Positions 5,595 to 62,543 of a stretch of 64,000 nucleotides of DNA are shown here, in pieces. Position 1 is the stretch's first letter, and each line of letters opens with the position of its first letter. The DNA lies in IMG/VR virus record IMGVR_UViG_3300033148_003715; one strand, 5' to 3'. A program made the position numbers and the translations under genes. This stretch comes from an uncultured virus (IMG/VR IMGVR_UViG_3300033148_003715). Taxonomy: Duplodnaviria > Heunggongvirae > Uroviricota > Caudoviricetes. The notes beneath the pieces were generated by a model. It saw only the letters and a program-made list of their open reading frames with translations. It did no database searches and was not told where the DNA came from.

Positions 5595-5612
5595 GTTTGG
5601 GATATCCCAAAC
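5595..5612. promoter_or_regulatory. 18-bp palindrome, copy 1 (perfect), directly before the portal RBS
   Basis: GTTTGGGATATCCCAAAC. Confidence 0.85.
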
Positions 5613-5625
5613 CAGGAGGGTTCAG

Positions 5626-7869
5626 GTGAGTCGAGACAACGGGGCCGCGAAGGCCGTGATCGTAGGACCCGCCGCGCCGGCCGAGATGCTCGACCGCCTC
5701 GACGCCGAGCAGGCTGAGAAGCACGCCAGGTGGAGTTCGATGCGGACGGCGGTGGTGTCGGTCGGGAAGCGCATGGGCCTCCTAACCGAGTCCGCGAAGA
5801 AAGACGCCTCGAAGCAGGTCAGAACCAGGCTTACCAAGGCCGGGGAGCTTCAGGCCCCGACCACGCACGAGGACGATGACGACCTACTCCAGTACGGTCG
5901 GACCGACATGGTCGACGACACCCTGATGTCGCCCTACGACTTCGAGGTCCTGTGTAGCTTGGAGGAGAACAGCGGGTCGCTTCGTCAGAACATCGACGCC
6001 ATGGCGACCAACGTGGACGGGTTCGGCCACCGGTTCGAGCCCGTGATTGACTTCACGAGTCCCGAGGCAGACAACCTGATCCGAGACGTCATGCTCGTCG
6101 AGTCCCTCGAGAAGGGCATGCCTGACGATCTCATGGAACTCGACCAGGCCACGATCGACGACAACACCCCGAGCATCGACGAGGTCCAGGCGAGGAAGAT
6201 CCTCTGGGAGAGGATCGCGACGATCGAGAAGGCGAAGATCGAGCCGTTCTTCGAGTTCATCAACCCGGTCAACACGTTCGTCGAGCTACGCACGGCCATG
6301 CGGCGCAGCCGCGAGCTTCTCGGCAACGCCGGGTGGGAGGTGATCCGCGAAGACCCCGCTGATGTCGAGTCCAAGATCAGCCAGGTCTACGGTGTCCCGT
6401 TCGTGCATGTGCGGCTCGTGCGCGCCGACAGGAAGCCCATCGAGGCCAGCATGGTGATCCGTAAGAACCTGGTCCATTTCGAGACCATCAAGGTCAACCG
6501 GTTCTTTCGGCGATTCATGCGGATGACGGGATCGACCCGGATCTACTACAAGGAGTTCGGTGACCCGCGCGTGGTTTCTCGCGACACCGGCCGGTACTAC
6601 GAGTCGGTCAAGGAGTTGCAGAGCGACGCCAACGAGGGCGAGAAGGCCAAGCCCGCGAACGAGTTCTTCCACTGGGAGATTCCGAGCGAGGTCAGCGCGT
6701 ACGGGATTCCGAGGTGGATCGGCGCGCTACTGGCCGTGATCGGTTCACGCGCTGCCGAGGAAGTGAACTTCTTGTACTTCGACAACAAGGCGATCCCGGC
6801 CATGGTCATGCTCGTCTCGGGCGGGCGTGTCTCCGAGGAGTCGGTGACGAAGATCGAGTCGTACATCGAGGACCACATCAAGGGACGAGCCAACTACCAC
6901 AAGATCATGATCCTTGAGGCTCTCCCGGCGGGTGTCGACGCCTCCGAGGGAGACCTGGAGCACTCGGGGAAAACAAGGATCGAGCTGAAGCCTCTCCTGG
7001 GGAACCAGATCCAGGATGCGCTGTTCCAGGAGTACGACGCCAACAACACCACGAAGATCGGGAGGAGCTTCCGCCAGCCACCGATCCTGACCGGTGACAC
7101 GAAGGACATGAATCGGTCAACCGCCGAAACTGCCAAGGCACTCGCGGAGGAGCAAATCTACCAGCCTGTCCGGGATCAGTTCGACAAGGTCATGGATCGA
7201 CACTTTCTCACGAACTTGAAGGTCCACTTCTGGCGATTCGTCACGAACGCGCCTGTCCAGCGACTCCCCAACGATCTTGTCGACAACGTCAAGAAGTCCC
7301 TCGAGGCCGGCGCGATCGTCCCCAACGAGGCTCGCGTCCTCCTTGGAGACGCCTTCTCGACCGACCTCGACTACAAGGACGAGGACTGGGCCAAGATCCC
7401 GCCCAAGCTGGCGGTCGCCGCGGCCCGACAAGGCGCGCTCCCGGGCGCGGAGCCGGGCGACGAGGGATCGAGGGCGGCCGACGAGGTCGAGTCCGCCGTG
7501 GGAGACCTTGTCGGGAGGGGGAAGACGAGCGAGAGCGAGGGACACCTCCACGGGTTCGCCGCCGTTCGAGAGGGGGCCCAGATCCGAGTCATGGTCATGC
7601 CGGGCGGCGAGGACGGTCACTCGCACTCGGTCGCCCCGGTCCCGTTCAAGGACGGGGGTAAGTTCGAGATCACCACGGCCCCCCACGGGGGCGAGGGCGG
7701 GCACGCGCACGAGGTCGCCTTCACGGCCCCCATGTCGAAGCGACGCCAACGTGCCCACAACGCGGCCGTCGCGCTCGCCTACTTGCGCCGCTCGATCCAG
7801 GAGGAGGTCGAGGCCGGCAAGGACGAGTTCTTCGACGCCTCCAAGCTAGAGCAACCCGAAGACGATTAG
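5626..7869 (+). CDS. Portal protein (PBSX-like) with His-rich C-terminal extension
   Basis: Start GTG 5626 with AGGAGG RBS; ELLGNAGWEVIRE, YGIPRWIG, YFDNKAIPAMVMLVSGG, FRQPPILTG..DMNRSTAE, I.PNEAR; position in the head module. Confidence 0.88.
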   Translation: MSRDNGAAKAVIVGPAAPAEMLDRLDAEQAEKHARWSSMRTAVVSVGKRMGLLTESAKKDASKQVRTRLTKAGELQAPTTHEDDDDLLQYGRTDMVDDTLMSPYDFEVLCSLEENSGSLRQNIDAMATNVDGFGHRFEPVIDFTSPEADNLIRDVMLVESLEKGMPDDLMELDQATIDDNTPSIDEVQARKILWERIATIEKAKIEPFFEFINPVNTFVELRTAMRRSRELLGNAGWEVIREDPADVESKISQVYGVPFVHVRLVRADRKPIEASMVIRKNLVHFETIKVNRFFRRFMRMTGSTRIYYKEFGDPRVVSRDTGRYYESVKELQSDANEGEKAKPANEFFHWEIPSEVSAYGIPRWIGALLAVIGSRAAEEVNFLYFDNKAIPAMVMLVSGGRVSEESVTKIESYIEDHIKGRANYHKIMILEALPAGVDASEGDLEHSGKTRIELKPLLGNQIQDALFQEYDANNTTKIGRSFRQPPILTGDTKDMNRSTAETAKALAEEQIYQPVRDQFDKVMDRHFLTNLKVHFWRFVTNAPVQRLPNDLVDNVKKSLEAGAIVPNEARVLLGDAFSTDLDYKDEDWAKIPPKLAVAAARQGALPGAEPGDEGSRAADEVESAVGDLVGRGKTSESEGHLHGFAAVREGAQIRVMVMPGGEDGHSHSVAPVPFKDGGKFEITTAPHGGEGGHAHEVAFTAPMSKRRQRAHNAAVALAYLRRSIQEEVEAGKDEFFDASKLEQPEDD

Positions 7870-7879
7870 AGGATGAACG

Positions 7880-8500
7880 GTGAAGAAGAAACCGCGGAGG
7901 CGGGCTAACGGGAAGGCCGTCGGAGAGATCAACGGATTCCCCATCTACCGCATGAAGGTCTCGGAGATCGTTCCATCCGGCTACAACCCGAGGGAGATCA
8001 CCGACAAGGCCCTCGGGGGACTCCAGGCGAGCGTGGACGAGTTCGGGCTCACGCAGCCAATCGTGTGGAACAAGAGGACCAAGAGAATCGTCGGGGGACA
8101 CCAGCGGCTCAAGACGCTCCCCCCGGAGACCACGACCGACGTGGTCGTGGTTGATCTGGGCGAGGTCAAGGAGAAGGCTCTCAACCTGGCTCTCAACAAT
8201 CCCCACGCAGCCGGTGACTGGTCGGACGATCTATTCGAGATCCTCGAGGAGATCCGGGTCGAGATTCCCGATCTCTCGAATGACCTCAGGTTCGACGACA
8301 TCATGGGGGGATCGGTCGTGGATCTCGGCATTGATGACGAGTCGCCCGGGTTCGCGGAGGGCGAGCAGTTCGCGAGGGCCGACGTGGTCGTGGTTGAGGT
8401 GTCGGTACCGACCAACCAGTTCGATTCGGTGTTCAAGCAGGACATGCTCGAGTGGTGCAAGGAGAGGGATGTCACGTTCAAGGTGAGAGTCAAGCGGTGA
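7880..8500 (+). CDS. ParB-like N-terminal domain protein, paralogue of the N-terminus of 3040-4116
   Basis: YNPREIT..ALGGL..S..EFG..QPIVWNKRT..IVGGHQRLKTL; shares DLGEVKEKALN.ALNNPHAAGDW with the MTase fusion. Confidence 0.85.
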   Translation: MKKKPRRRANGKAVGEINGFPIYRMKVSEIVPSGYNPREITDKALGGLQASVDEFGLTQPIVWNKRTKRIVGGHQRLKTLPPETTTDVVVVDLGEVKEKALNLALNNPHAAGDWSDDLFEILEEIRVEIPDLSNDLRFDDIMGGSVVDLGIDDESPGFAEGEQFARADVVVVEVSVPTNQFDSVFKQDMLEWCKERDVTFKVRVKR

Positions 8501-9900
8501 TCGTTCTCGTCCAGCCCATGTACTCGAAGCGGGAGCTGAACGCGGATTCGAACTACGTGATCTACTCCTCGCTCATCAGGGGGTTTCACGAGGCCGGGCT
8601 CCCCCACCATTTCGTCGTGGTCTTTCCCGATGACAAGAGTGGATTCGCTTACTCGCCAGACGGCTTCTTCTCTCTACCGAACGTGACGCGCGTCCCGCAG
8701 AGAATCAGCACTCGGAAGATGGTCAACGCGGTCACGTTCGACGGGACCTGGTACACGACCCTGCTGAGGCGGTTCGGTTTCGACCTGGTCTGGTGCAACC
8801 TGGTCGAGGTCGCCGCGCAGATCAAGCACTCCAGCGATTCCACGTTTGAGGACGCGGGCCGACCGGCCGTGATCGTGGCTCACAACTACGCCATCCACAG
8901 GTCTCTGCCTTACCCCATGCACGCCATGGAGCATGTCCTGTGGGCGCAGTTCGTCGGGGCCGTCAACGCCGACGTCAACGTGTTCAACAGCGACCACTGC
9001 AAGTTCATGTTGCTCGAGGAGGCCCGAGATCGACTCTCGGAGGAGTCGTGCAAGAAGATTGAGGACAGCTCGGTGAGGATCGACTACGGTCCCCTCGAGG
9101 CCGATCTTCCCATGGTCCAGCACAAGGTCGACCTGCCCATCATCGCCTACAACCATCGCCTACAGGGCTACAAGCAGTGGCGCACGACCTTTGACGTCCT
9201 CAAGGACCTCTGGGACGAGGGAGTGAGATTCCGGGTCCGGTACATGAACAACACGACCGAGAACTCGTCTGCGATCCGGGCGATGCCGTTCGTGGAGGTT
9301 CGACTCTGCAAGGACCGTAGGGACTACCTGGAGGCGCTATCCGGGTGCCACCTCAACGTCATGAACAGCCTGCACGAGACCTTCTGCATCTCCGCGATTG
9401 AGTCCATGGCCCACGGTCAGCCCTTGATCGCCCCGGACGGGGTGACCTTCCCTCAGATCACGGGCAAGACGGCAGGAAACAGGTATCCCTACCTGTTCCG
9501 AGACGTCGACCAACAGAAGGTCATGTTGCGGAAGCTCCTCGCCAGCCCTCTCGAGCGTCGCAGGTTGGGAGGCGTGGTCCGCAAGCACGTCAACGAGAAC
9601 TACACGCGCTCCCTGTGGGTCGAGCGATACGCCGACTTGTTCGAGCAGGCAAGTGCGCGACACCAGCCAAGCACGGACAAGAAGTTCGTCGCCAAGGTCG
9701 GCGACCTTCTGACCTCGTATCCGAGGAGAGGGAAGAAGGCCAGGGCCTTCTACAACGACCTCACGCGCATGCGGGTCAACGGACGACAGAAGGTGAGTAA
9801 CCAGAGTTTCCCCATGGCGAAGGTGATCAGGCTGGCTCGCCAGGCCGGGGGTGAGATCCTGTTCGCCGAGGGCGAGCAGTTCGTGAGGTCGGGTCGGTGA
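8497..9900 (+). CDS. Glycosyltransferase (GT-B, GT4-like)
   Basis: GTGA overlap start; YNHRL..YKQ, SLHETFCISAIESMAHGQPLIAP (E-x7-E motif). Confidence 0.8.
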   Translation: MIVLVQPMYSKRELNADSNYVIYSSLIRGFHEAGLPHHFVVVFPDDKSGFAYSPDGFFSLPNVTRVPQRISTRKMVNAVTFDGTWYTTLLRRFGFDLVWCNLVEVAAQIKHSSDSTFEDAGRPAVIVAHNYAIHRSLPYPMHAMEHVLWAQFVGAVNADVNVFNSDHCKFMLLEEARDRLSEESCKKIEDSSVRIDYGPLEADLPMVQHKVDLPIIAYNHRLQGYKQWRTTFDVLKDLWDEGVRFRVRYMNNTTENSSAIRAMPFVEVRLCKDRRDYLEALSGCHLNVMNSLHETFCISAIESMAHGQPLIAPDGVTFPQITGKTAGNRYPYLFRDVDQQKVMLRKLLASPLERRRLGGVVRKHVNENYTRSLWVERYADLFEQASARHQPSTDKKFVAKVGDLLTSYPRRGKKARAFYNDLTRMRVNGRQKVSNQSFPMAKVIRLARQAGGEILFAEGEQFVRSGR

Positions 9901-10760
9901 GGGTCCTGGTGACTGGCGCGGCAGGATTCATCGGGAGAGCGGCGTGCAGTCGTCTCGTCGGGGAAGGCCACGAGGTCGTAGGTCTTGACAGTTTCGTGAA
10001 GCCCTCGGCGGCCTGGCCCAGCGGATTCGAGGAGCGATACAGGGCCGACGTGCGCGACCTGCCCGAGCTGCCGATCCGGGCGTGTGACGCTGTCATCCAC
10101 TTGGCGGCCCAGACCGCCGTCACCAGATCCTATGACGCGCCCCGTGCGGACTTCCTCGCGAACGCTGCGGGCACGTTCGAGGTCTGCTTGTGGGCGCGGT
10201 CCTGTGGGGCGCGCGTGATCTACGCGAGCACGAACAAGGTCTACGGCGACCTCGAGGACAAGAGAGAGCCCACGAGCCGTCACGATCCGATCGACCCCAG
10301 GACCCCGTACGGGGTCAGCAAGGCGACCGGTGCCCTCTATGTGAGGGAGCTTGTCGATCGGGGCTACGTGTTCCACCAGAGCTGTATCTACGGGCTCGAG
10401 CAACAGGGCACGATAGATCAGGGCTGGGTCTCGTTCGTGGCTCGTCAGATCCGCCTCGGTCGGCCGATCTGCTGCTTCGGTGACGGCACCCAGGTGAGAG
10501 ACCTTCTTCACGTTGACGATCTTGTGAGGTGCTACCTGGTGGCCCTCCGGGGCGACCTCGAGCCGGGTTCATACGTGGTCGGTGGAGGGTCCGAGAACGC
10601 ACGGTCGTTCTCTGATGTGATAGACCTCCTGGGGGGAGAGATCGCCTCGTTCGGCCCCTGGCGGTTGCACGATCAGAGGTACTTCGTCAGCCTGAACGAC
10701 GACCTGCCGTGGAGTCCGCGGGTGGACGTGAGGGCCGGGATCGAGGCTCTGAATCGGTGA
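9897..10760 (+). CDS. NAD-dependent nucleotide-sugar epimerase/dehydratase (CDP-paratose epimerase-like SDR)
   Basis: VLVTGAAGFIG, HLAAQTAV, ASTNKVYG, YGVSK (YxxxK), SCIYG..Q.GT.DQGWV, GDGTQVRDLLHVDDL. Confidence 0.9.
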   Translation: MRVLVTGAAGFIGRAACSRLVGEGHEVVGLDSFVKPSAAWPSGFEERYRADVRDLPELPIRACDAVIHLAAQTAVTRSYDAPRADFLANAAGTFEVCLWARSCGARVIYASTNKVYGDLEDKREPTSRHDPIDPRTPYGVSKATGALYVRELVDRGYVFHQSCIYGLEQQGTIDQGWVSFVARQIRLGRPICCFGDGTQVRDLLHVDDLVRCYLVALRGDLEPGSYVVGGGSENARSFSDVIDLLGGEIASFGPWRLHDQRYFVSLNDDLPWSPRVDVRAGIEALNR

Positions 10761-12967
10761 CGCTTTCGCTCGCACTCCTCGACTCACTCGCTCACGTTGA
10801 CTGGCTCGCCCACGCGCTTGTCGGGAAGGCGACCAAGCAACCCGGGCTTGCCTCGGTCTTGACCGAAGACGGATTCATCCAGGAGATCCTGCGCGAGTCT
10901 CGATTGATCCAGAGACAGGTTGGTCAGGCACTCAACTCGAGGGCCGTCCGGGACGGGCTTCTTGCGAGCACGAACATCAACTGGAGGGGAGTGAGCCTGA
11001 GTCAGCGCCGGGACGCGGTCAAGGCCATGTCGAACCTGATGGCTGGCCTCCCTTCGATGTTCTCTCCGAGCGTGAGGGGGATTCTGGACACGAACACGAA
11101 CAGGATCGTCGACGACGTTCATCAGAAGCTCGGGGCCAGGCACAAGGTGTTTGGGGTCGACCCCGTGTTCGCGTTGAAGAACAAGCAGGCCATCGCGGCC
11201 ATCAACGACTCGACGTCGATCTTCTTCTCTCCCGAGTACGAGCGGCAGGCCGGTCGGTTCCGGGCTCGCTCGCAGGACGTGATGCAACGGGGTCTCTCAG
11301 AGGGGCTCGGGTCGAGGGAGATCGGAGCACAACTCAGGACCGAGTTCAGAAACACAGCCATCAATCGCAACTACTGGGACACGGTCGCGGCCGTCCACGT
11401 CAACCGCGCCAGGTCGTTCTCGGCCGCGGCCACCTACGCCTCGAACGGGGTGACGCAGTTCGAGGTCGTCGCGGTGATGGATAAACGCACGACCGAGGTG
11501 TGCAGAATGCTCGATGGAACGATCCTCAGCGTAGAGTCCGCCCTGAACGCCTTTGACTCCATGGAGGCCGCGGAGGACCTCGACGGGGTTAAGGCTGCGA
11601 CGCCGTTCATGCAGGTCAGGGGAGGGACGATCAGCAATCAGCATGGGACGATCGCGACTCGCGCTCAGGGCGGCGGGTGGAACCGAGTCTCTCCTGCTGG
11701 CATGAATGCGAAGGGAGTCAATATGCCCCCTTTTCACATGCGCTGCAGGACGACCGTTGTGCCGGTCATGTCGTCGGCGTCCCCGATCTCTCCCCCGGTG
11801 GGGGCGACCGAGGCCCCCACTCCTCCTCCGTTGCCCGCGACGAGTGTTCGTCCACCTATCGCCACCATCGCTCCCAAGGCGCCTACGCCGAAGCCGACCG
11901 ATCCCTACAACCCAGGACCGGATCCGATCAGCGCGGTCGGGACAGCATCGGAGAAGCGCAAGGCCGTGCTTGGGCAGATTCGTGATGGCCGTGGTCTTCC
12001 TCCGGGGGCGATGCACAAGGGCCCACTCAGTGCCGAGCATCGCTTGTTCGGCTCTGGTTCCGACAAGCAAGGCAAGGTAGACCAGTTCGGGATCGAGACC
12101 GCCGAGGCGTTCGCGAAGATTGGCCGAGGCATGATCGCCAACGACAAGAAGCTCCGCGCGGCCTGGAACAAGGCAGTCAAGATCGGCAAGGACCCCGGCA
12201 CGGCTACTACGTTCGATGCCTTCGATGCCAGGGCCAACGCGAGCAAGGAGATCCTGCGGGTGGCTCGACGCCTGGGCGCGAAGGCGATCCCCCAGGCCGA
12301 ACGCGCCGCGAGGAAGAAGAAGTTCCAGAAGGACGTAGTCGCCATGGTCAAGCCCGGCAAGGAGCATCTGAAGCTCTTTACTGGGGCTAAGGGGAAAGTA
12401 TCTGCGGCTGACAAGAAGGACCTGAGGAAGTGGGCGGGCGAGGCGTTCGACTCTTGGGGACCCATGGCCGAGCAAGCCCTGATGAGGAATAGGAACATCT
12501 ACAAAATGCCCAGCTCGGTTAGGGCTCACAACTCAGATGATTTTCGATATTTCGGCTACACGGATCGCCAAGCCTTCCATCATGAGTTTGCCCATTCGAT
12601 CGAGTCGCACGCAATCGTCCCGCGGTGGCACGGCGGGTCGAATCCAAGTTCGACCCGCGACGATTCGTTCTGGTCGGCGCGGATCAAGACGCGCGATCCA
12701 GGACCGAGAAAGCAGATGGTCGGCTACGGCCCGGGTGAAAAGAGTCGCGAGGACAAGTGGGCTAGTCCCTACATGGGCAAAGACTACAGCGACGGGGGGT
12801 CTGAAGTCGTCACCATGTTCAGCGAGATGTTCGGCGGCAACCTGTCGAACGTGAGCCGACAGATCGCCAAGGATCACTCAGCGGTCGAGGAGTTTCTCGG
12901 CTACATGGTCTCGATGATCAATGGCGAAGTCACCCGCCAAGCCAGGGGAGGATTCGTTGGCCTCTAA
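10757..12967 (+). CDS. Head morphogenesis protein (MuF/SPP1 gp7 family) with Pro-rich linker and C-terminal HEXXH domain
   Basis: AVMDKRTTEVCRMLDG and PPFHMRCRTTVVP (MuF); HHEFAHSIE at about 12578-12604; PYMGKDY...EVVTM. Confidence 0.85.
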   Translation: MTLSLALLDSLAHVDWLAHALVGKATKQPGLASVLTEDGFIQEILRESRLIQRQVGQALNSRAVRDGLLASTNINWRGVSLSQRRDAVKAMSNLMAGLPSMFSPSVRGILDTNTNRIVDDVHQKLGARHKVFGVDPVFALKNKQAIAAINDSTSIFFSPEYERQAGRFRARSQDVMQRGLSEGLGSREIGAQLRTEFRNTAINRNYWDTVAAVHVNRARSFSAAATYASNGVTQFEVVAVMDKRTTEVCRMLDGTILSVESALNAFDSMEAAEDLDGVKAATPFMQVRGGTISNQHGTIATRAQGGGWNRVSPAGMNAKGVNMPPFHMRCRTTVVPVMSSASPISPPVGATEAPTPPPLPATSVRPPIATIAPKAPTPKPTDPYNPGPDPISAVGTASEKRKAVLGQIRDGRGLPPGAMHKGPLSAEHRLFGSGSDKQGKVDQFGIETAEAFAKIGRGMIANDKKLRAAWNKAVKIGKDPGTATTFDAFDARANASKEILRVARRLGAKAIPQAERAARKKKFQKDVVAMVKPGKEHLKLFTGAKGKVSAADKKDLRKWAGEAFDSWGPMAEQALMRNRNIYKMPSSVRAHNSDDFRYFGYTDRQAFHHEFAHSIESHAIVPRWHGGSNPSSTRDDSFWSARIKTRDPGPRKQMVGYGPGEKSREDKWASPYMGKDYSDGGSEVVTMFSEMFGGNLSNVSRQIAKDHSAVEEFLGYMVSMINGEVTRQARGGFVGL

Positions 12968-13307
12968 GGAGAAGAAGGCCGTTTTGGCCGTGTGGGATCG
13001 TGACCGAGTCGTCGAGATCGAGGTGACCTGGAACAAGGGGTACGATGTCGACGCTTCGATCAAGGTCCCAGCCAGGTTCAAGCCTGTCTGGAAGGCCGCA
13101 GTCGAGTTCCTCCGTGAGGAGCGAGGACCGAGAGACACGATCTCTCCCTACGGGGGTCTCTCGCAGATTGCGGTTCTGTCTCGAGACCTGAACAAGACCG
13201 CGACGGGTGCGTTTGCAGTCGCGAGCGCGATCTGGCCCAACGCGGGCTGGAAGGTGCGACCTCCCTACCCGGAGGTTGAAGATCCGAGCGAAAAGGTGAA
13301 GCCATGA
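12957..13307 (+). CDS. Hypothetical protein overlapping the MuF stop (immunity candidate)
   Basis: TTG 12957 with GGGGAGGA RBS (ORF track starts at 12921). Confidence 0.55.
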   Translation: MASKEKKAVLAVWDRDRVVEIEVTWNKGYDVDASIKVPARFKPVWKAAVEFLREERGPRDTISPYGGLSQIAVLSRDLNKTATGAFAVASAIWPNAGWKVRPPYPEVEDPSEKVKP

Positions 13308-13633
13308 CGGGACCACTGATCAAGATCAACGAGGACTTCAACCGAGGCGATCAGCGGCGAGCCTACCGCGAATTCTGGTCTGTCATGTACCCGATCGTGG
13401 CTCTCGTGGTGGAGTCGAGTTTCATGCACCCCTCGACGGGCATGAAGACAGACCCGACTCAGGCCGAGATCAAGGAGCGGACCGACGTCTGCAAGAAACT
13501 CGTCGACACCATGAGGAACGACCTCGGGTGGAGCCAGGTGAGGATCAAGGACAACCTGGCCCTGGCCCTGCGGACGAAGCTGTCGGGTCTCGTCGTCGAC
13601 CTCGACGCGCTCGCCAAGCGGGGATCCTGGTAG
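13304..13633 (+). CDS. Hypothetical protein
   Basis: ATGA overlap; GC3-rich ORF. Confidence 0.7.
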   Translation: MTGPLIKINEDFNRGDQRRAYREFWSVMYPIVALVVESSFMHPSTGMKTDPTQAEIKERTDVCKKLVDTMRNDLGWSQVRIKDNLALALRTKLSGLVVDLDALAKRGSW

Positions 13634-13638
13634 GACTG

Positions 13639-13656
13639 GTTTGGGATATCGCAAAC
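13639..13656. promoter_or_regulatory. 18-bp palindrome, copy 2 (one mismatch)
   Basis: GTTTGGGATATCGCAAAC, 5 nt after a stop and 7 nt before a -35 box. Confidence 0.8.
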
Positions 13657-13663
13657 CCCTAGC

Positions 13664-13693
13664 TTGACTCCCCACCCCGAGCACGCTTAGACT
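13664..13693 (+). promoter_or_regulatory. Sigma70-like promoter candidate
   Basis: TTGACT-18 nt-TAGACT upstream of ATG 13731. Confidence 0.55.
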
Positions 13694-13730
13694 CTTGATC
13701 GTAGAAGAAGACCACCGGAGGATCACCGAA

Positions 13731-14363
13731 ATGCCGATCACCGCCGACGAACTCAAGAAGGCTCTCGCGCCGATCACCGAGATCGAGAAGACCGAGCGCG
13801 TCGACCTCGACCCCCTCAAGGTCGCCAAGGCCCTGGTGGCCGAAACGACCAGCTTCGTCTCCGCCGACGACCCCATGTCGAAGCTCGACGCGATCTGCGA
13901 CCGCGTGGACGGGATCGACACCCTCCTCGAGAAGGCCGAGGAGGACGACGGGGGGATCTTCGTCAGCGTCCTGCCGACGAACGAGATCGCCAAGGAGTTC
14001 TCGATCGTCAAGACCGACCCTAAGCCCGCCCCGGCCGCGCCCCCTCCGGTCACGGAGAAGGGCAAGGAGGGCACTGGCGGGGTGGCCGAGGCCGGAGCCA
14101 CCTCGGAGGGCGACAAGGCCCAGGGTGGGGCCAAGGCGGCCCCTGAGGGTGGGAAGACCGAGACCGAGAAGGGCGACGGCCTCTCCGACGACGTCGAGTG
14201 GGCCAACGACCTGGCCCCGGCCAAGCCCCCCACGACCCGCAGCGAGCGCCTGACCAAGGACGAAAGGCCCGTCCCGGCCCGCCGCGGCGCCAGCGCGACC
14301 ATGGCCAAGTACGAGAAGGCCCGAGACCGGGCCATGGGTCGCAGCGAGCGCTGCACGGAGTAG
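13731..14363 (+). CDS. Acidic low-complexity head-module protein
   Basis: ATG 13731 with GGAGGA RBS; lies before the protease. Confidence 0.7.
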   Translation: MPITADELKKALAPITEIEKTERVDLDPLKVAKALVAETTSFVSADDPMSKLDAICDRVDGIDTLLEKAEEDDGGIFVSVLPTNEIAKEFSIVKTDPKPAPAAPPPVTEKGKEGTGGVAEAGATSEGDKAQGGAKAAPEGGKTETEKGDGLSDDVEWANDLAPAKPPTTRSERLTKDERPVPARRGASATMAKYEKARDRAMGRSERCTE

Positions 14364-14371
14364 GTTCATCG

Positions 14372-15451
14372 ATGGCGGCCAAGCAGGAGCCGAAGAAGAC
14401 TGAGGCCGGCGTGCAGTTCCCCGCCGCTGCCTACGCCCACGTGCCCGACGGGTCCAAGCCGAGCACGTGGAAGCTGCGCCTGTTCGATACCCCGGCCGAC
14501 GTCGCGGCCGGCAAGCCGTCGATCAGGATCACCGCCGCGGCCGTCATGGCCCTGTCGTCGTCTGGGTTTCGAGGACAGCCGGTCCAGATCCCCGCCTCCG
14601 ACCGCGCCGCCGTCAAGCGCAAGGTCGCCGCGGCTTGGCTCAAGGCTCGCCGTCAGGCGGGTCAACAGGCCGCGCTCCCCCAGGTCCTCAAGGTGGACGA
14701 GATCCCGGCGACGAAGCTCGAGGGAATCGTCCTCTCGCTTGACGAGGCCGGTCAGGAGGCGTTTAGCCGCCTCGCGGGCTCGCTCCCCGAGATCGCCAAG
14801 GTCGTCGGGGACCTGGCGCGGGACATGGTGGTCGACCCGACGCAGAAGCGCGACGAGCCTGTCCCGGTCGGGACCGCCGTCGCCGACCTCGAGATCCTCT
14901 TGCTTCAGGTCAAGGATGAGGCTATCAAGAAGAGGATCGAGGGCGTCCTCGGGGTCCTGGGGAAGGCCGAGAAGTTTGGGATATCCCAAACCGATCCTGG
15001 GACACTACAGCCCGAGCAGGGGGAGTTGGAGCCGGGGACGGTTGAGGAGCCCACGTTCGCTCCGATCGACGTCAAGATCGTCAAGATCGAGTCCGAGGAG
15101 GAGCGCACGGTCTTTGGGATCGTCCTCGAGCCTGAGGAGATCGACTCCCAGAAGGACGTCTACTCGGAGGACGAGGTCCGCAAGACCGCGTATCAGTTCC
15201 TCGAGCGTTACCAACAGTTCGGCCTCATGCACCAGCAGATCGTCTCGACGATCCTCCCGCTCGAGTCCTACCTGGCCCCGGTCGAGTTCAAGAGCGGTGA
15301 GCAAACGATCAAGAAGGGGACCTGGCTACTCCGCACCAGGATCCTTGACGACGCGATTTGGAAGAAGATCAAGAAGGGCGAGTTGACTGGGTATTCGATC
15401 GGTGGGTCGGCCGTCAGGACTCCCGACAAGGTCAAGGTTACCGCGGCGTGA
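14372..15451 (+). CDS. Prohead protease (XkdF-like)
   Basis: EERTVFGIVLEP..IDSQKD, GLMH, ESYLAP, IKKGTWLL, IWKKIKKGELTGYSIGG. Confidence 0.85.
   Translation: MAAKQEPKKTEAGVQFPAAAYAHVPDGSKPSTWKLRLFDTPADVAAGKPSIRITAAAVMALSSSGFRGQPVQIPASDRAAVKRKVAAAWLKARRQAGQQAALPQVLKVDEIPATKLEGIVLSLDEAGQEAFSRLAGSLPEIAKVVGDLARDMVVDPTQKRDEPVPVGTAVADLEILLLQVKDEAIKKRIEGVLGVLGKAEKFGISQTDPGTLQPEQGELEPGTVEEPTFAPIDVKIVKIESEEERTVFGIVLEPEEIDSQKDVYSEDEVRKTAYQFLERYQQFGLMHQQIVSTILPLESYLAPVEFKSGEQTIKKGTWLLRTRILDDAIWKKIKKGELTGYSIGGSAVRTPDKVKVTAA
14974..14991. promoter_or_regulatory. 18-bp palindrome, copy 3 (perfect), inside the protease CDS
   Basis: GTTTGGGATATCCCAAAC, read as K-F-G-I-S-Q-T with codons atypical for this gene (TTT, ATA, CAA). 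Confidence 0.8.
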
Positions 15452-15460
15452 CCAGAGACC

Positions 15461-15490
15461 TTGACCGCGACGATCGGAAACGAGTAAGCT
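15461..15490 (+). promoter_or_regulatory. Sigma70-like promoter candidate
   Basis: TTGACC-18 nt-TAAGCT upstream of 15516. Confidence 0.5.
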
Positions 15491-15515
15491 CAGGCGTGTT
15501 GGAAGTGGCAGCAGC

Positions 15516-17381: not shown

Positions 17382-17451
17382 AACCACCAAGGACTGCCGA
17401 ACCGCCTCGGCGGGACGTGGCCGAACCCGTAAGAGTAGGAGGAACTCACTC

Positions 17452-18390: not shown

Positions 18391-18447
18391 GCTTCGGCCT
18401 AGCTCGCCCGTCCCCAGGACACACAGAAAGCACACGGAGGAAACACC

Positions 18448-18783
18448 ATGGCAAGCACGATCGCCCTCTCGAACCACGGCGGCAAGCAGCCGTCCGCGCC
18501 CCTGATCGCGACCGTCCTGGACTTCACGTCCGATACCTCGTACCCGAACCCGGCGGGGTGGCCGTTCAACCCGGGTGCGCTGCTCCAGTCGCTCGCCGGC
18601 TACGACAAGGCCCCCGAGGTCATGTCGGTGCTGTCCGAGCCCAAGGGCGACTACTACGCCCAGTGGGACCGCTCGGACAACAGCCTGCACTTCTACCTGG
18701 TCTCGACCGGGGCCGAGGTCGCCAACACGGTCGACCTGTCGACCACGCCGGGCCTCGTGAAGCTGCTGGTGCTCGCCAAGTAG
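18448..18783 (+). CDS. Putative head decoration/structural protein
   Basis: Directly after the capsid gene; GGAGG RBS; SYP..GW...GAEVANTVDLS. Confidence 0.55.
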   Translation: MASTIALSNHGGKQPSAPLIATVLDFTSDTSYPNPAGWPFNPGALLQSLAGYDKAPEVMSVLSEPKGDYYAQWDRSDNSLHFYLVSTGAEVANTVDLSTTPGLVKLLVLAK

Positions 18784-18798
18784 AAACCACCAACCGGA

Positions 18799-18844
18799 GG
18801 AGGCGGGACCGGACTGGGCTAGTCCCAAGCCTGGTCCCGCCTCC
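18799..18844 (+). terminator. GC-rich hairpin after the capsid genes
   Basis: GGAGGCGGGACC...GGTCCCGCCTCC, 12-bp arms; only a weak U tract. Confidence 0.55.
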
Positions 18845-18880
18845 TTCGCTATCAACGATTAGAGACGACAGGAGAACAGC

Positions 18881-19997: not shown

Positions 19998-19998
19998 C

Positions 19999-23285: not shown

Positions 23286-23303
23286 GTTTGGGATATCCCA
23301 AAC
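23286..23303. promoter_or_regulatory. 18-bp palindrome, copy 4 (perfect)
   Basis: GTTTGGGATATCCCAAAC between stop 23281 and the next RBS. Confidence 0.85.
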
Positions 23304-32260: not shown

Positions 32261-32278
32261 GTTTGGGATATCCCAAAC
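32261..32278. promoter_or_regulatory. 18-bp palindrome, copy 5 (perfect)
   Basis: GTTTGGGATATCCCAAAC, 2 nt after a stop. Confidence 0.85.
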
Positions 32279-37328: not shown

Positions 37329-37360
37329 TGGTCGGGTCTGCGACATCACAGACCCGACCA
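37329..37360. terminator. 12-bp hairpin after the tube genes
   Basis: TGGTCGGGTCTG-8 nt-CAGACCCGACCA, followed by GATTAGAG twice. Confidence 0.55.
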
Positions 37361-43261: not shown

Positions 43262-43279
43262 GTTTGCGATACAGCAAAC
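43262..43279. promoter_or_regulatory. Degenerate palindrome, copy 6
   Basis: GTTTGCGATACAGCAAAC; outer GTTTGC/GCAAAC arms kept; directly before the spike RBS. Confidence 0.55.
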
Positions 43280-50888: not shown

Positions 50889-50906
50889 GTTTGGGATATC
50901 GCAAAG
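50889..50906. promoter_or_regulatory. 18-bp palindrome, copy 7 (two mismatches)
   Basis: GTTTGGGATATCGCAAAG between a stop and an RBS. Confidence 0.75.
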
Positions 50907-51946: not shown

Positions 51947-53658
51947 TCCTCGTCTCCCTGACCCGGGCGGGCACGGTCGGGCTCAGACCCAAGACCAGAG
52001 CCGACCGTGCCCGCCTAAGGTCTATCCCGTACGTGAAGCGGACCCGCAGCGGGGTCGGGGCTACGTGGTGGACCTATCTGTCGGATCTGCGCCGAGACGT
52101 GCCGGCTCGTCAGCTCTGTTGGGACCCAGGGGTGGTCGGCCGTCTCCGCGCGTTGAAGCTCTCCCTGGACGAGCGCCTCAAGGGCGACGACGACGAGGTC
52201 CTGCGTGAGTTTGCCGACGGGGTCGAGCCATACCGGTTTCAGATCCAGGCGATTCATTGCGCGCTCAACGTGAAGCGCCTCCTGATCGCCGACGACACCG
52301 GGCTTGGGAAAACCATTGAGACCATCGGGACCATGCAGGTCGCGATGGCTAGAGGTCTGGTTCGGCGTGCGATCCTAGTCGTCCCGTCCGGGGTGAAGGT
52401 CCAGTGGTACGAGGAGATCCACCGCTTCGCTCGTTGTCCGCCTGATCCGATCGTGGTCGTCATGGGGGGATCGCCCAAGACCAGGAAGACCATCTACAAG
52501 AAGTCCTGGCGGGTCCTGGTGATCAACCCCGAGCTGGTCAGGATCGACAGCCGACACATCGACCGCGTGGAGGATGTCGACTTCGTCGTCCTCGACGAGG
52601 CGAGCTGTATTCGGAACCCCGACACAGCCATCGCCTACACGATGAAGGAGCTGTTCAAAAGGACCAAGTTCCGACTCGCCCTCACGGCGACACCGGTCGA
52701 GAACCGACTCGCCGATCTTTGGTCGGTCTTCGAGTGGGTGGACAGGCGCGTGTTTCTATCGAAGAGGTACTTCGATAGCCGATACATCGTTTGGAAGAAG
52801 CGCAAGCTGACCGTCTACAGTAATCGGCTCAAGCGCAATGTGACGATCACCAAAGAGGAGCCTTTGCGATATCGCAAACTCCGTGAGGTTCAGGCGAAGA
52901 TTCGACCCGCCTACATCCGACGTCGAGTCAGCGACGTCGAGATTGAGCTTCCAGGCTTGATCGTCAAGTGGGAGACGATCCACCTTCCCAAGAGACAGAG
53001 GCTCGTCTACGAGGCCATCAAGGACAAGGTCATCGCCAAGCTCGCGGGACTGCGAGGTGCCGCGCTCCGGGCTCCCCTCCAGGCCCTCAGGCAGGCGTGC
53101 AACAGCACGGCACTGGTGGAGCGGGCCGGGGGGCAGAAGCCCGTCCACGCCAAGGTGGACCGGATCCGGGAGCTGCTCGAGACCGAGCTGGCCGGCGAGC
53201 AGGTGATCGTCTTCACCGACTACGAGCGGTTCGTCAGGCTCATGATGGACGAGCTGCGCCAGTACCGCCCCGTGGCCTACACGGGGAAGATGACCAAGCG
53301 GGACAAGCAGCGGGCCGTAGAGGCGTTCCGGCTCGGGGACCGGCGGCTCCTCCTCGGGACCAAGGCGCTCGAGCGCGGGCACAACCTCCAGAACGCCTCG
53401 ATTGTGATCAACGTCGACCTGCCCTGGAACCCGGCCGCGGTAGCCCAGCGGATCGGGAGGATCCGCCGGATCGGGTCCGAGCACGGCACGTGCAGGTTGA
53501 TCAACATGATCGCCAAGGGGACGGTCGAAGAGAAGCTGATCATGCGGAAGCTCTACCTCAAGAACAAGCTGTTCCTGGATCTGTTCGAGTCAGCGAGTGA
53601 CGTCACGTTTGACCTGTTCGAATCCATGGGCGGGGCGGAGGTAGCGGACTTCCTGTGA
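51943..53658 (+). CDS. SNF2-family helicase/translocase
   Basis: IADDTGLGKT, VVLDEAS, ALTATPVEN, GHNLQNAS.VINVDLPWNP, QRIGRIRRIG. Confidence 0.92.
   Translation: MILVSLTRAGTVGLRPKTRADRARLRSIPYVKRTRSGVGATWWTYLSDLRRDVPARQLCWDPGVVGRLRALKLSLDERLKGDDDEVLREFADGVEPYRFQIQAIHCALNVKRLLIADDTGLGKTIETIGTMQVAMARGLVRRAILVVPSGVKVQWYEEIHRFARCPPDPIVVVMGGSPKTRKTIYKKSWRVLVINPELVRIDSRHIDRVEDVDFVVLDEASCIRNPDTAIAYTMKELFKRTKFRLALTATPVENRLADLWSVFEWVDRRVFLSKRYFDSRYIVWKKRKLTVYSNRLKRNVTITKEEPLRYRKLREVQAKIRPAYIRRRVSDVEIELPGLIVKWETIHLPKRQRLVYEAIKDKVIAKLAGLRGAALRAPLQALRQACNSTALVERAGGQKPVHAKVDRIRELLETELAGEQVIVFTDYERFVRLMMDELRQYRPVAYTGKMTKRDKQRAVEAFRLGDRRLLLGTKALERGHNLQNASIVINVDLPWNPAAVAQRIGRIRRIGSEHGTCRLINMIAKGTVEEKLIMRKLYLKNKLFLDLFESASDVTFDLFESMGGAEVADFL
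52862..52879. promoter_or_regulatory. Palindrome, copy 8 (symmetric variant), inside the SNF2 CDS
   Basis: CTTTGCGATATCGCAAAC; inner 16 bp TTTGCGATATCGCAAA is a perfect palindrome. Confidence 0.7.
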
Positions 53659-54296: not shown

Positions 54297-54314
54297 GTTT
54301 GGGATATCCCAAAC
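54297..54314. promoter_or_regulatory. 18-bp palindrome, copy 9 (perfect; extends to 22 bp, 54295-54316)
   Basis: GA-GTTTGGGATATCCCAAAC-TC just upstream of the dnaE RBS. Confidence 0.85.
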
Positions 54315-59693: not shown

Positions 59694-60200
59694 GTGTCGT
59701 GGAAGTGCCCGACTTGTGGCCCGGTCGACGCCCCCATGTTCGGCGAGGACGAGCAGTTTCATTGCTCCAAAGTGGGCTGCGACGAGGTCGTCTCGATCCT
59801 CTCGGAGGCCGAGAGGATCGCCGCGCAGGGCTGGAAGAAGTTCAGTATCGGTCCTGGGCCGAGGAGGAACCACGCGAAGGAGGAGCAGGACAGCAGGACT
59901 GCGACGGCCGAGGGTAAGAGGATCCTGGCCAACATGGCCGCACGGAACGAGGCAAGATCGAGAGGAACGACGATCGTGAAGAAGACCAAGAAGAAGGCTG
60001 GAGTCAAGGACCAGAAGAAGTCGGCGGCGGCCAAGAAGAAGCCCGACGCGACCTCGGCCGAGGTCGCGGCGATCGAGACCTGCCTCCGCGCGCTCGAGGG
60101 ACTTGACGCGGCCGAGTCGGTGATTCGCTACGTGGCTCGCCGGCACGGTCTCTCGGTCCTCGCCGTTGGACAGAACGCGACCTCGACTCGCGCCCTATAG
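59694..60200 (+). CDS. Hypothetical Zn-ribbon protein with Lys-rich linker
   Basis: CPTCG...HCSKVGC. Confidence 0.6.
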   Translation: MSWKCPTCGPVDAPMFGEDEQFHCSKVGCDEVVSILSEAERIAAQGWKKFSIGPGPRRNHAKEEQDSRTATAEGKRILANMAARNEARSRGTTIVKKTKKKAGVKDQKKSAAAKKKPDATSAEVAAIETCLRALEGLDAAESVIRYVARRHGLSVLAVGQNATSTRAL

Positions 60201-60218
60201 GTTTGGGATATCCCAAAC
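60201..60218. promoter_or_regulatory. 18-bp palindrome, copy 10 (perfect), filling the whole intergenic gap
   Basis: TAG|GTTTGGGATATCCCAAAC|ATG. Confidence 0.85.
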
Positions 60219-60912: not shown

Positions 60913-60941
60913 TTGTGGGGTGGGTATGACCCGGCTATAAC
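60913..60941 (+). promoter_or_regulatory. Sigma70-like promoter, probably leaderless transcript
   Basis: TTGTGG-17 nt-TATAAC; ATG 60948 lies 7 nt downstream with no SD. Confidence 0.6.
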
Positions 60942-60947
60942 GTGGGT

Positions 60948-61370
60948 ATGAGCAGCACAACCAAGACCCGCCGCCGACCCAAGAACATGGCCGAGAAGAA
61001 CCTGACCTGCTCGCGCTGCAAGGGCACCGGCTACGTCGACTCCCCCGTCCTCTACGCGGGCCGCCCCGGTGGCTGCTTCAAGTGCGCCACCCGCGGAACG
61101 GTCCCGAACCGGGCCAAGCAGTACCGGCTCGACCTCGAGGAGGCCCGCTCCAACCTGGTCGAGGCTCAGAAGGATGTCCCCGAGGCTCGCAGGCTGATCG
61201 AGGAGGCGGTCGTGGCGAAGCGGGCCCGCTATGAGGCCAAGGGGACGGAGTTCACCGCCAAGCGCGAGGCCAGCTACCGCGGGCGGCTCCAGAGCGACGT
61301 CGACCGTGCCTTGAAGGCCCTCTCTTACCGCGAGGCCGAGCTGGCCGCCTTTGTCGACGAGGGGATTTAG
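60948..61370 (+). CDS. Hypothetical protein with CxxCxGxG zinc motifs
   Basis: CSRCKGTG...CFKCATRG then coiled coil. Confidence 0.7.
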   Translation: MSSTTKTRRRPKNMAEKNLTCSRCKGTGYVDSPVLYAGRPGGCFKCATRGTVPNRAKQYRLDLEEARSNLVEAQKDVPEARRLIEEAVVAKRARYEAKGTEFTAKREASYRGRLQSDVDRALKALSYREAELAAFVDEGI

Positions 61371-61411
61371 TTGTAAGGGCGACGAATAAGAACAACACGA
61401 AGGAGACAACC

Positions 61412-61864
61412 ATGAAGAAGCAGACCAAGCTCGATCGCGCCCAGATCCTCATCCTCGCCAATTCCGAGGAGGGAGGGTCGGTCAGTGTCTCGAGCCGGTA
61501 TGGTGGGCCGAGCTGGGCCGAGGGTACCGGCATCGGGCTCGGGACCATTCAGCGGGCCGCGAAGATCCTCGAGGATCGGGACCTGCTCCGCACCCCCGGC
61601 TACAACAACCGGTCGAGCCACTACCACCGGACGACCGAGGCCGAGCGGCGCGAGGCTCGCGAGGTCACCCACCGCCGCCACGCCGCCGACGCCGAGTCGA
61701 AGGACGTCCGGGCCACCCTCGAGGGCCACGGGGTTGAGACCAAGAAGGACTACGGGACCGACATCATCATGACCGCCGCCAACGCCCGCAAGCTCCTCGC
61801 CCTGATCGGGTCCAGCGCGGACGCCGAGACCCTCGCAGCGGTCCGGGCCCTGCTCACCAAGTAA
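61412..61864 (+). CDS. Hypothetical protein
   Basis: AAGGAG RBS. Confidence 0.7.
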   Translation: MKKQTKLDRAQILILANSEEGGSVSVSSRYGGPSWAEGTGIGLGTIQRAAKILEDRDLLRTPGYNNRSSHYHRTTEAERREAREVTHRRHAADAESKDVRATLEGHGVETKKDYGTDIIMTAANARKLLALIGSSADAETLAAVRALLTK

Positions 61865-61916: not shown

Positions 61917-61980
61917 GCGTGTCTAAGGCGGATTGGCCCTCGGGGGTCGGTGACGGGTTCGACTCCCGTGGCGCGCGTCA
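61917..61980 (+). ncRNA. tRNA-like element lacking a D-arm and a canonical anticodon loop
   Basis: Acceptor-like stem GCGTGTC/GGCGCGC, T-arm ACGGG-TTCGACT-CCCGT, central 8-bp hairpin, 3' G-TCA. Confidence 0.5.
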
Positions 61981-62009
61981 ACCCTGATTAGTAGACCAAG
62001 GAGAAGGCT

Positions 62010-62411
62010 ATGAAGACCACCACGACCCAGAAGATCATGAACGCGATCCGGGACCTGCATGACTCGACCCCGAAGATCGTCGCCGCGACCGGCCTGGCGG
62101 CCTCGACGGTCCGGCGCAATCTGTCCGTCCTGCGCGAGTCCGGCCAGATCGTCGCGGCCGGTCAGGCCCGGCCCCGGGGCTACACCTACTCGCTCCCGAC
62201 CCCGGAGCCCATGCCGGAGTTCGTCACCACCGCCACCCCGGAGGAGACGATCATCGCCACCCTCGAGGCCCCGACCCCGTTCGGCCTCATCGCGGCCCGG
62301 ACCCGGATCAAGCGGGTTCGGCTCCAGGCCGTCCTGGTCCTGCTCGTCCAGGACGGGAAGCTGATCCGGGAGCGGATCAGCGGCGGCTGGGTCTACCAGC
62401 GGACCGCGTGA
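62010..62411 (+). CDS. Tandem winged-HTH DNA-binding protein
   Basis: STPKIVAATGLAASTVRRNLSVLRESGQIV; second repeat IAARTRI....LQAVL..LVQDGKL. Confidence 0.7.
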   Translation: MKTTTTQKIMNAIRDLHDSTPKIVAATGLAASTVRRNLSVLRESGQIVAAGQARPRGYTYSLPTPEPMPEFVTTATPEETIIATLEAPTPFGLIAARTRIKRVRLQAVLVLLVQDGKLIRERISGGWVYQRTA

Positions 62412-62525
62412 CCCCTCAGGGGCCGCTCACAGGTCTCGATCTCCCCCTGGGGGGATCCGGGCCTGTCGGGCGAGATCGTGCGCGAGGCGAGCCCGGAGAG
62501 CGTCACAGGGCACGCCCGGGAGAAG

Positions 62526-62543
62526 GTTTGGGATATCCCAAAC
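62526..62543. promoter_or_regulatory. 18-bp palindrome, copy 11 (perfect)
   Basis: GTTTGGGATATCCCAAAC; a second palindrome GACCCCCCGGGGGGTC follows at 62549-62564. Confidence 0.85.

Follow-up and report, generated by a model that had tools for sequence, protein, structure and literature searches.

The 64,000-nt stretch of DNA analyzed here (called the window throughout) comes from an uncultured virus of the class Caudoviricetes (IMG/VR record IMGVR_UViG_3300033148_003715) and carries an 18-bp palindrome, GTTTGSGATATCSCAAAC, repeated along its length. The window has a G+C content of 65%, and from ∼1.8 kb on nearly all of its genes lie on the plus strand. Scans with PHROG and Pfam profiles identified a structural set (terminase, on the minus strand at 1-1626; portal; XkdF-type protease; and major capsid-type protein), a tail set (sheath, tube, tape measure, and baseplate), and a replication module comprising an SNF2 helicase, a DnaE-type polymerase, a DnaB helicase, and a CHC2 zinc-ribbon protein. 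Neither an Rfam scan nor a tRNA scan of the window gave a match. The phage is contractile-tailed and without a close cultured relative; no nucleotide match was obtained when each half of the window was searched against 50,697 phage records, and its polymerase is ∼30% identical to the polymerases of Streptomyces phages.

The view is extended to 79 kb by two other viral records of this phage, which overlap with the window, and negative coordinates are used below for composite positions upstream of the window start. Record G001 covers the window from 20328 onward together with 3.5 kb past its end and is 100% identical where compared, while G002 (reversed) spans window coordinates -11606 to 19689 and is 99.97 to 100% identical except for an 87-nt indel in the terminase gene. 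A contig of 131,306 bp bears a sheath protein identical to that of the window phage. One HTH_3 protein is encoded upstream of the window.

Copies of the palindrome and their placement

Eleven sites were found in the window, compared with 0.01 expected from 100 dinucleotide-preserving shuffles, none of which reached 11. This site scan returned exactly the coordinates listed in a preliminary description of the DNA, which had been made from the sequence alone. Seven of the copies are perfect (GTTTGGGATATCCCAAAC) and four are imperfect (Table 1). Five extra copies lie upstream of the window in G002 (-11102, -10125, -4104, -3035, and -735), and none was found in the 3.5 kb past the window end in G001, which brings the total to 16 copies in 79 kb, 11 of them perfect. 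No other 12-mer of the phage is repeated nearly as often as the motif. Conservation covers all 18 positions, the center included, and the half-sites GTTTGSG and CSCAAAC have their centers 11 bp apart, about one helical turn. Matches with four mismatches were at chance level (5 found versus ∼8 expected), and no center variants were identified in the window phage. One C-type half-site is present in three copies (13639, 50889, and -3035) and two are present in 43262 and 52862; 3 of the 16 copies have G/G or C/C at positions 6/13 without compensation.

Among 2.9 million viral contigs, the exact motif was identified only in the two records of this phage. In the genomes of 185,579 prokaryote species (one representative each) there were 53 matches, from unrelated phyla and each alone on its contig, and all 69 matches in a metagenome collection were likewise single on their contigs. 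By our own estimate, an 18-mer with two twofold positions would be expected a few tens of times by chance in ∼600 Gb. An origin of the array as a selfish REP-like or host-derived repeat, or as an artifact of assembly or adapters, can scarcely be entertained, given that none of the species genomes had a contig with more than one copy, that sister motifs occupy orthologous places in sister phages known from other records, and that no REP-mobilizing transposase turned up in general protein scans. The artifact reading, which the preliminary description had offered as a way in which its proposal could fail, is refuted by the recurrence of the same copies in the overlapping records G001 and G002. 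The motif is neither an artifact nor a host repeat.

Within the window, 9 of the 11 copies are intergenic and 2 (14974 and 52862) lie in coding sequences (CDSs) by our gene calls, the same split as reported previously, and all five upstream copies are outside called genes. Copies are present in every module and on both transcription blocks. The preliminary description had the copies mostly squeezed between a stop codon and the next ribosome-binding site, and this holds: five of the nine intergenic window copies begin 0 to 5 nt past a stop codon (the others 15, 31, 114, and 118 nt), and the distance from motif to start codon is 12 to 15 nt at five sites, 0 nt at 60201, and 39, 74, or 118 nt at the others. 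At the five sites with 12- to 15-nt spacing (5595, 23286, 43262, 50889, and 54297), the motif ends directly upstream of the ribosome-binding site. At 60201 the motif was said to be the entire gap between two genes, and indeed the stop codon TAG occupies 60198-60200 and the ATG follows at 60219. Upstream of the window, a TTG start codon abuts copy -10125 and an ATG lies 12 nt past -3035. Both in-CDS copies are written in rare codons; joint usage probabilities of 1e-5 and 3e-7 were obtained for the codons of the protease linker and of the helicase peptide PLRYRKL, respectively, and in the helicase copy these codons have usages of 0.066 to 0.118 (0.03 for AAA) in the window phage.

Table 1. Palindrome copies and the candidate reader gene in the window
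Feature	Coordinates	Strand	Context
Perfect copy	5595..5612		31 nt past stop of methyltransferase C-part (5563); 13 nt before portal GTG 5626
Copy with G/G at 6/13	13639..13656		5 nt past stop 13633; followed by promoter-like TTGACT-18-TAGACT (13664-13693)
Perfect copy in CDS	14974..14991		Linker (∼residue 200) of 359-aa protein with C-terminal XkdF-type protease domain; rare codons TTT, ATA, CAA
Perfect copy	23286..23303		4 nt past stop 23281; 12 nt before GTG 23316; orthologue by position G004 20548
Perfect copy	32261..32278		2 nt past stop 32258; upstream of tail-completion (Neck1) gene; orthologues by position G003 6863, G004 11254
Degenerate copy, 4 mismatches, alone not significant	37336..37353		Full copies at same junction: G003 12094, G004 5905
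Degenerate copy, 2 mismatches, C/G at 6/13	43262..43279		15 nt before GTG 43295 (baseplate gene); orthologue by position G003 18227
1-mismatch copy, G/G at 6/13	50889..50906		3 nt past stop 50885; 15 nt before ATG 50922
1-mismatch copy in SNF2 helicase CDS, C/G at 6/13	52862..52879		Encodes P-L-R-Y-R-K; G003 has its own motif at same codons (33756)
Perfect copy	54297..54314		15 nt past stop 54281; 14 nt before ATG 54329 of DnaE-type polymerase
Perfect copy	60201..60218		Fills whole gap, stop 60200 to ATG 60219 of CHC2 zinc-ribbon (primase-type) protein
Perfect copy	62526..62543		114 nt past stop of tandem winged-helix gene; 39 nt before ATG 62583
Tandem winged-helix protein, 133 aa	62010..62411	+	Candidate palindrome reader

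Motif versions and spacing in sister phages

The sheath protein has many metagenomic relatives, and a search based on an alignment of 28 of them led to 63 viral loci. Repeated palindromes were identified only in the closest clade, at a sheath identity of at least 64% (64 to 73% in the sister phages). Where the sheath was ≤58% identical, no repeated palindrome was found in ∼30 loci of 8 to 22 kb and two complete genomes. The complete relatives G008 (118 kb) and G009 (114 kb), both with a sheath identity of ∼45%, have no palindrome array. A portal search returned a single distant relative (L026; 47.5% G+C), in which 10 kb contained no repeated palindrome.

The sister phage G003 (83,007 bp, in a record that does not include the head region; sheath identity, 69%) carries 34 copies of TTGCGGTACCGCAA with at most two mismatches, and its flanks extend the consensus to G-Y-TTGCGGTACCGCAA-R-C, i.e., GYTTGCGGTACCGCAARC, in the same 18-bp frame. 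Four copies with the core ATGCGGTACCGCAT are present in G004 (25,332 bp; sheath identity, 65%), and 1, 2, and 1 motif copies were identified in G005, G006, and G007, respectively. Compared with the window motif, that of G003 has G.C in place of A.T at positions 8/11 and differs in its preference at 6/13 and its strictness at 2/17, and the G004 motif additionally differs at 3/16. For comparison across genomes, the arrays of the clade can be written as GYTTGSGRTAYCSCAARC-type palindromes. The minor half-site of the window phage, GTTTGCGAT, is one base from the G003 half-site. The flanks of the G003 copies showed only a weak asymmetry. All 12 of the single-mismatch copies in G003 are single-sided changes, 10 of them in the arms, where they break the symmetry, and 2 central. 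In the same phage, a hairpin and two variant motif copies in tandem, 17 bp apart, lie past the gene for an HU-like protein.

Places were compared by mapping the window proteins onto G003 and G004 and comparing the lists of sites. A copy is found at the tail-completion gene junction in all three phages (window 32261, G003 6863, and G004 11254), and the junction before the gene at 37419 has full copies in both sisters and a decayed one in the window. Further shared junctions are window 43262 with G003 18227 (baseplate), window 23286 with G004 20548, and G003 8411 with G004 9694. All four G004 sites thus lie at junctions with a copy in the window phage or G003, one of them having only the degenerate 37336 as its window counterpart. 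Of the seven window sites in the region shared with G003, four are matched by a G003 copy at their junction or codon, if the degenerate 37336 is counted. Copies 50889, 54297, and 60201 are without a G003 counterpart and several G003 copies are without one in the window, indicating that sites also turn over. Conservation in relatives, on which the preliminary description had made its proposal depend, is therefore borne out by sister motifs at orthologous junctions in the sheath clade. As a separate observation, the leader at 37354-37418, upstream of a baseplate-hub-type gene, is conserved with G003 L212:12108-12175 (…TTAGAGCYGATTAGAGAAACCGAAAC…CGAAAG…), whereas intergenic DNA is otherwise diverged.

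The copy in the SNF2 helicase gene reads C CT TTG CGA TAT CGC AAA C in the window phage and C CC TTG CGG TAC CGC AAC C in G003, and both encode P-L-R-Y-R-(K/N). The same peptide is spelled in each phage by synonymous codons that give that phage's own motif, and because these are rare codons, selection at the nucleotide level is indicated. The sites, their conservation in place, and the co-evolution of their sequence are all directly visible in these genomes.

The G003 array is also evenly spaced. The coefficient of variation (CV) of its 33 gaps is 0.42, versus 0.96 under random placement, and the longest gap is 3,827 bp, versus 9,684 bp; none of 20,000 random sets was as even. With heuristic gene calls that were corrected by reading the context of each site, 19 of the G003 copies are intergenic and 15 are in CDSs, the latter in all three reading frames (LRYR, AVPQ, and CGTA). 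Every gap of >4 kb between successive intergenic copies contains one to four in-CDS copies and shorter gaps contain none; when the intergenic copies were held fixed and the other 15 were placed at random 20,000 times, no placement was as even. Even spacing, together with in-CDS copies that use all three frames and occur only in long gaps, points to a density requirement independent of gene boundaries, and the spacing rule suggests that the reader acts only over a limited distance. Spacing in the window phage, which has fewer copies, is not significantly even (CV, 0.67; P = 0.09), with gaps of up to 11 kb in which no cryptic copies were identified.

These data bear on the idea that the palindromes are spacing-dependent DNA identity tags, on which a phage machine loads and then acts over a few kilobases, in lagging-strand priming, recombination-dependent replication, processive DNA modification, or genome coating, with its specificity telling the phage's own DNA from that of co-infecting relatives. 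Besides the maximum gap of 3.8 kb in G003 and the confinement of its in-CDS copies to stretches where intergenic ones are >4 kb apart, the idea draws on the co-occurrence of the array with one replication module that is absent from the array-less relatives, on the zinc-ribbon gene that is abutted by a copy in both phages, and on the presence of at least three specificities in one clade. It is rather improbable all the same, given the wide and not significantly even spacing in the window phage and the uneven spacing in the closest known analogue, the Cluster O repeats of mycobacteriophages, 34 of which were recovered from the Corndog record and are clustered (CV, 1.06). In addition, the surroundings of the zinc-ribbon protein revealed no catalytic primase domain, and recognition of an 18-bp palindrome is not known for any primase, recombinase, or modification enzyme. 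In its most specific form, in which self-identity tags have a maximum spacing, a reader loads at each and acts over only ∼3 to 4 kb, so that a tag is required at least that often, within long genes as well, and tag and reader have shifted together in the sisters, the idea is equally doubtful. If true, it would limit silencing, priming, or protection to the phage's own DNA during co-infection and would amount to a genome-wide viral addressing system distinct from operators, parS, and Chi.

Candidate readers and modes of action

The best explanation, advanced tentatively and at a little under an even chance, is that the palindromes are docking sites for a phage-encoded DNA-binding protein that controls transcriptional read-through, with a tandem winged helix-turn-helix (wHTH) protein as the most likely reader. 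From the conserved array we infer binding by a protein, the identity of the binder, and an effect on transcription. A phage protein, probably a dimer and most likely the wHTH product of 62010-62411, would read the two inverted half-sites on double-stranded DNA. The sites would be fitted into minimal gaps between stop codon and ribosome-binding site or, where there is no gap, written into the CDS with synonymous rare codons. Bound protein would then punctuate the whole genome and could control read-through genome-wide as a roadblock, an insulator, or a silencer, in the manner of mycobacteriophage stoperators, and recognition specificity would have diverged between sister phages. The distribution of copies over modules and promoters is closer to what boundary or roadblock elements would show than to that of classical operators, and the repressor or roadblock idea is plausible. 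The divergence of specificity among the sisters is as expected of an immunity-like or self-recognition pair.

An AlphaFold2 (AF2) model of the wHTH protein built from a 10-sequence alignment has two winged helices and a predicted local distance difference test score (pLDDT) of 87.5, whereas an earlier model from 2 sequences was poor (pLDDT, 58). The fold matches generic winged-helix proteins (YceH, ScpB, AlkX, SelB, and the ArsR family) and no specific family. A distant homologue is encoded in G003 (BLASTP E value, 0.001; profile E value, 6.5e-58), 2 to 3 genes past the primase-type gene and with a motif copy 3 nt past it. The family is small, with 17 matches, ∼10 of them full-length, in 1.84 billion protein representatives; a word-based search found only the protein itself, and the family alignment, scanned twice against viral contigs, matched only this phage and G003. 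It is absent from Corndog and from G008 to G011, of which the complete G008 and G009 were checked and have no array. The wHTH protein is the leading, though unproven, candidate reader. Other possible readers are an HTH_3 protein and a zinc-finger protein encoded in the minus-strand block upstream of the window, a region outside the G003 record. The preliminary description had also named the tandem wHTH protein as a candidate binder; the two predicted winged helices and the synteny in G003 lend this some support, but the protein is not singled out from the rest of the replication module, as explained below.

Several observations weigh against the docking-site explanation. The co-occurrence of wHTH protein and palindrome rests on two phages, and this pattern is shared by the whole replication module (SNF2 helicase, DnaE, DnaB, and zinc-ribbon protein), so that it does not set the wHTH protein apart. 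Its two domains have different recognition helices, so that one chain cannot read two identical half-sites. Neither an integrase nor a CI-type immunity repressor was identified in 79 kb of the ∼131-kb genome or in the examined G003 sequence, which leaves a lysogenic stoperator role without support. No copy is present in the divergent promoter region at 1627-2350, and the gaps of up to 11 kb in the window phage show no significant evenness. Lastly, the position of five of the nine intergenic window copies only 0 to 5 nt past a stop codon is what would be seen with RNA 3′-end hairpins; one copy per phage tips a perfect palindrome of 44 to 46 bp; the copy at 37336 has kept a hairpin while the motif decayed, forming the tip of an 11-bp stem (-24.3 kcal/mol); and tandem winged helices can bind RNA hairpins, as in SelB, with SelB and its selenocysteine insertion sequence (SECIS) among the fold matches of the wHTH protein.

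The last group of points favors an RNA-level element, a 7-bp stem with a 4-nt loop that serves as an exonuclease barrier or is recognized by an RNA-binding protein or a nuclease of the phage, and so controls processing, stability, or translation re-initiation in long polycistronic mRNAs. This is unlikely, though it is a serious contender. The core hairpins fold at -7.8 to -11.8 kcal/mol, the copies lie 0 to 5 nt past stops and 0 to 15 nt before starts, abutting the ribosome-binding site and with no spacer before the start codon at 60201 and -10125, and the differences among the sister motifs (2/17, 6/13, and 8/11) all preserve complementarity. Set against this, the stability of the core hairpin in typical copies is ordinary for its composition (z, -1.5 to -2.1), and a stem pair is broken without a G-U pair or compensating change in 3 of 16 copies here and, in G003, in 10 of the 12 copies with a single mismatch. 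Conservation extends to the loop and to each base of the stem, more than a hairpin with a purely structural role would require, and in-gene copies in three frames and only in long gaps are odd for an RNA signal at gene boundaries. There is no Rfam match, and a terminator scan of positions 1 to 20000 listed none of the three copies there; a U-tract, a feature of intrinsic terminators, is absent after the sites, and only 32261 is followed by TTT. A duplex reading is consequently favored over an RNA or single-strand role. The claim in the preliminary description that the motif is a site for a dimeric DNA-binding protein rather than an RNA hairpin is strengthened by full-length conservation, dyad symmetry, and the three uncompensated variants among 16 copies, with a role as an RNA hairpin as the less likely alternative.

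Motif-centered perfect palindromes of 44 to 46 bp occur exactly once per phage, in L022 (composite -4116 to -4073, around copy -4104) and in L215:1674-1719 (G003 61674-61719, around copy 61687), and the latter folds as RNA at -47 kcal/mol. These copies may be a true bidirectional terminator, an origin, or a master site.

The motif was also considered as a promoter and was rejected as one, no consistent -10/-35 element being identified at a fixed distance from it. Sigma-A-like promoters follow four copies (13639, -735, -4104, and G003 8411) at varying distances. The motif could still be a boundary element. Besides the palindrome, the repeat TATAAC-N3/4-GGGTATGA has five copies, at window 60936-60951 (plus strand) and at composite -815, -1362, -3552, and -4180 (minus strand, L022). 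TTGCGR is found 17 nt ahead of two of them and an ATG 8 to 9 nt past the -10 box, and they look like sigma-A-type promoters of leaderless mRNAs. A related sequence, GGGTTATGAG, has four copies near the palindromes and was not found in G003.

The preliminary description had further proposed that the palindromes are loading sites for two ParB-like proteins encoded in the window (7880-8500 and a ParB-methyltransferase at ∼3040-4116), and parS-like or KorB-operator-like sites of this kind are very unlikely. The GTTT...AAAC arms do resemble chromosomal parS, and KorB on plasmid RK2 has 12 palindromic operators dispersed over a 60-kb replicon. ParB-N-type domains are present, with PHROG ParB-like E values of 1e-21 to 1e-24 and an E value of 2e-4 in the alignment to the Spo0J/ParB N domain. 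The CTP/arginine-patch sequence GERRxRA, however, reads GGHQRLK, the Pfam ParB_N match scores 20 bits, under the 26.3-bit cutoff, and neither protein has a detectable HTH or dimerization domain (in the 206-aa protein, no Pfam domain follows the N domain). One of these proteins forms the N-terminal part of a DNA methyltransferase, no ParA was identified in the PHROG and Pfam scans, and the complete relative G008 has a ParB_N homologue (28 to 32% identity) but no palindrome array. The proposal is not supported by this evidence.

The ParB_N-methyltransferase gene itself appears to be split. The first open reading frame (ORF), 2764-4116, with a start probably near 3040, carries ParB_N and positions 1 to 67 of the N6_N4_Mtase profile, and a second ORF, 4598-5563, carries profile positions 60 to 181. 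The ∼480 nt between them (4117-4597) look noncoding, have no Rfam match, and could be an intervening sequence or a decayed gene. In the large terminase gene (minus strand), the 87-nt in-frame stretch at window 942-1027 that is missing from G002 is a strain polymorphism or an assembly variant. An HNH/NUMOD4 homing-type endonuclease gene (45149-45694) and a DUF6527 gene (47236-47574) lie inside the baseplate module, have no counterpart in G003, G004, G008, or G009, and are probably recent insertions. In G003 (L213-L215), intein/LAGLIDADG insertions were identified in the SNF2 helicase, in a DEAD helicase, and apparently in DnaE and DnaB (1546 versus 1127 aa, with DnaB in two parts), and this phage also encodes a sigma-70 region-2 protein along with the HU-like protein.

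A restriction-site role for the motif center was rejected. GATATC is rare outside the motif in the window phage (2 copies versus ∼7 expected), yet GGTACC has 9 copies outside the motif in G003, so that the motif center is not a generally avoided site. Across the whole window, several 6-bp palindromes are strongly avoided relative to a second-order Markov expectation, namely GAGCTC (1 versus 54 expected), TCCGGA (0 versus 36), ACGCGT (0 versus 27), CAGCTG (0 versus 17.5), CCTAGG (0 versus 15.6), and AGATCT (1 versus 19), and CTCGAG is frequent. The sets of avoided 6-bp palindromes differ in the relatives. Such avoidance is the footprint of host restriction systems.

Relation to known systems and significance

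The closest parallel in kind is the 17-bp palindromic repeat TGTTCGGNNNCCGAACA of Cluster O mycobacteriophages, for which its authors suggest a dimeric regulator but leave the function open (Cresawn et al. 2015, PMC4351075). As described there, those repeats resemble the present array in being phage-specific, with 7-bp arms, tens of copies, and placement in short gaps and in genes, and in being absent from host genomes (PMC4351075). They differ in sequence and lineage (a Mycobacterium siphovirus), and the Corndog copies are clustered and come without a homologue of the wHTH family. Conversely, the motif here differs between sisters at kept places, and the in-CDS copy is codon-tuned.

The stoperators of Cluster A phages, read by the L5 and TipsytheTRex repressors, are asymmetric 13-mers that are bound by a monomer and work in one orientation relative to transcription (PMC9283540). 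By the same account, they share with the palindromes a genome-wide distribution of many short sites (>20 copies), mostly in short intergenic spaces, and a small phage protein as reader (PMC9283540). They belong to temperate phages with an immunity repressor, whereas the sites here are perfect palindromes and no lysogeny genes were seen in the 79 kb or in G003. A stoperator network is the closest working analogy for the docking-site explanation.

The specificity of stoperators, too, reportedly diverges between related phages. Among other dispersed sites, the conserved inverted repeat (CIR) operators of the high-G+C Streptomyces actinophage phiC31 are 17-bp intergenic palindromes, and P1 has dispersed C1 operators; in both of these temperate phages one repressor serves many dispersed sites, which are concentrated near early promoters. 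In the ParB-parS and KorB-OB systems, palindromic sites of 13 to 16 bp are bound by a protein that slides away from them, and the defining protein features, when looked for here, were lacking. Repetitive extragenic palindromic (REP) sequences and bacterial interspersed mosaic elements (BIMEs) are hairpin-forming repeats of host genomes, 20 to 40 bp long, that lie just past stops in hundreds of copies and are mobilized by REP-associated tyrosine transposases (RAYTs). The likeness is that of hairpin repeats by stop codons and the difference is the confinement of the present motif to phage.

The array belongs to an already known kind, that of a phage-specific short palindrome scattered in gaps and genes, as in Cluster O. 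New are the three motif versions at conserved places, the tuning of synonymous codons within a gene, the spacing rule, and the narrow family of candidate readers. No description of the motif or the lineage was found in the literature, where searches covered related systems rather than this sequence.

The sister phages provide a natural experiment, in which the same junctions, and even the same helicase codons, can be followed across three motif versions. This points to strong selection on a genome-wide cis element with a reader, inferred to exist, that co-evolves with it. The candidates that can be tested have been narrowed to one family of tandem winged-helix proteins, with about ten members known. 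Were the reader identified, potential orthogonal protein-site pairs could become available as tools, and, with its effect also established, the array could explain how the genomes of large lytic actinophage-like viruses are insulated or marked.

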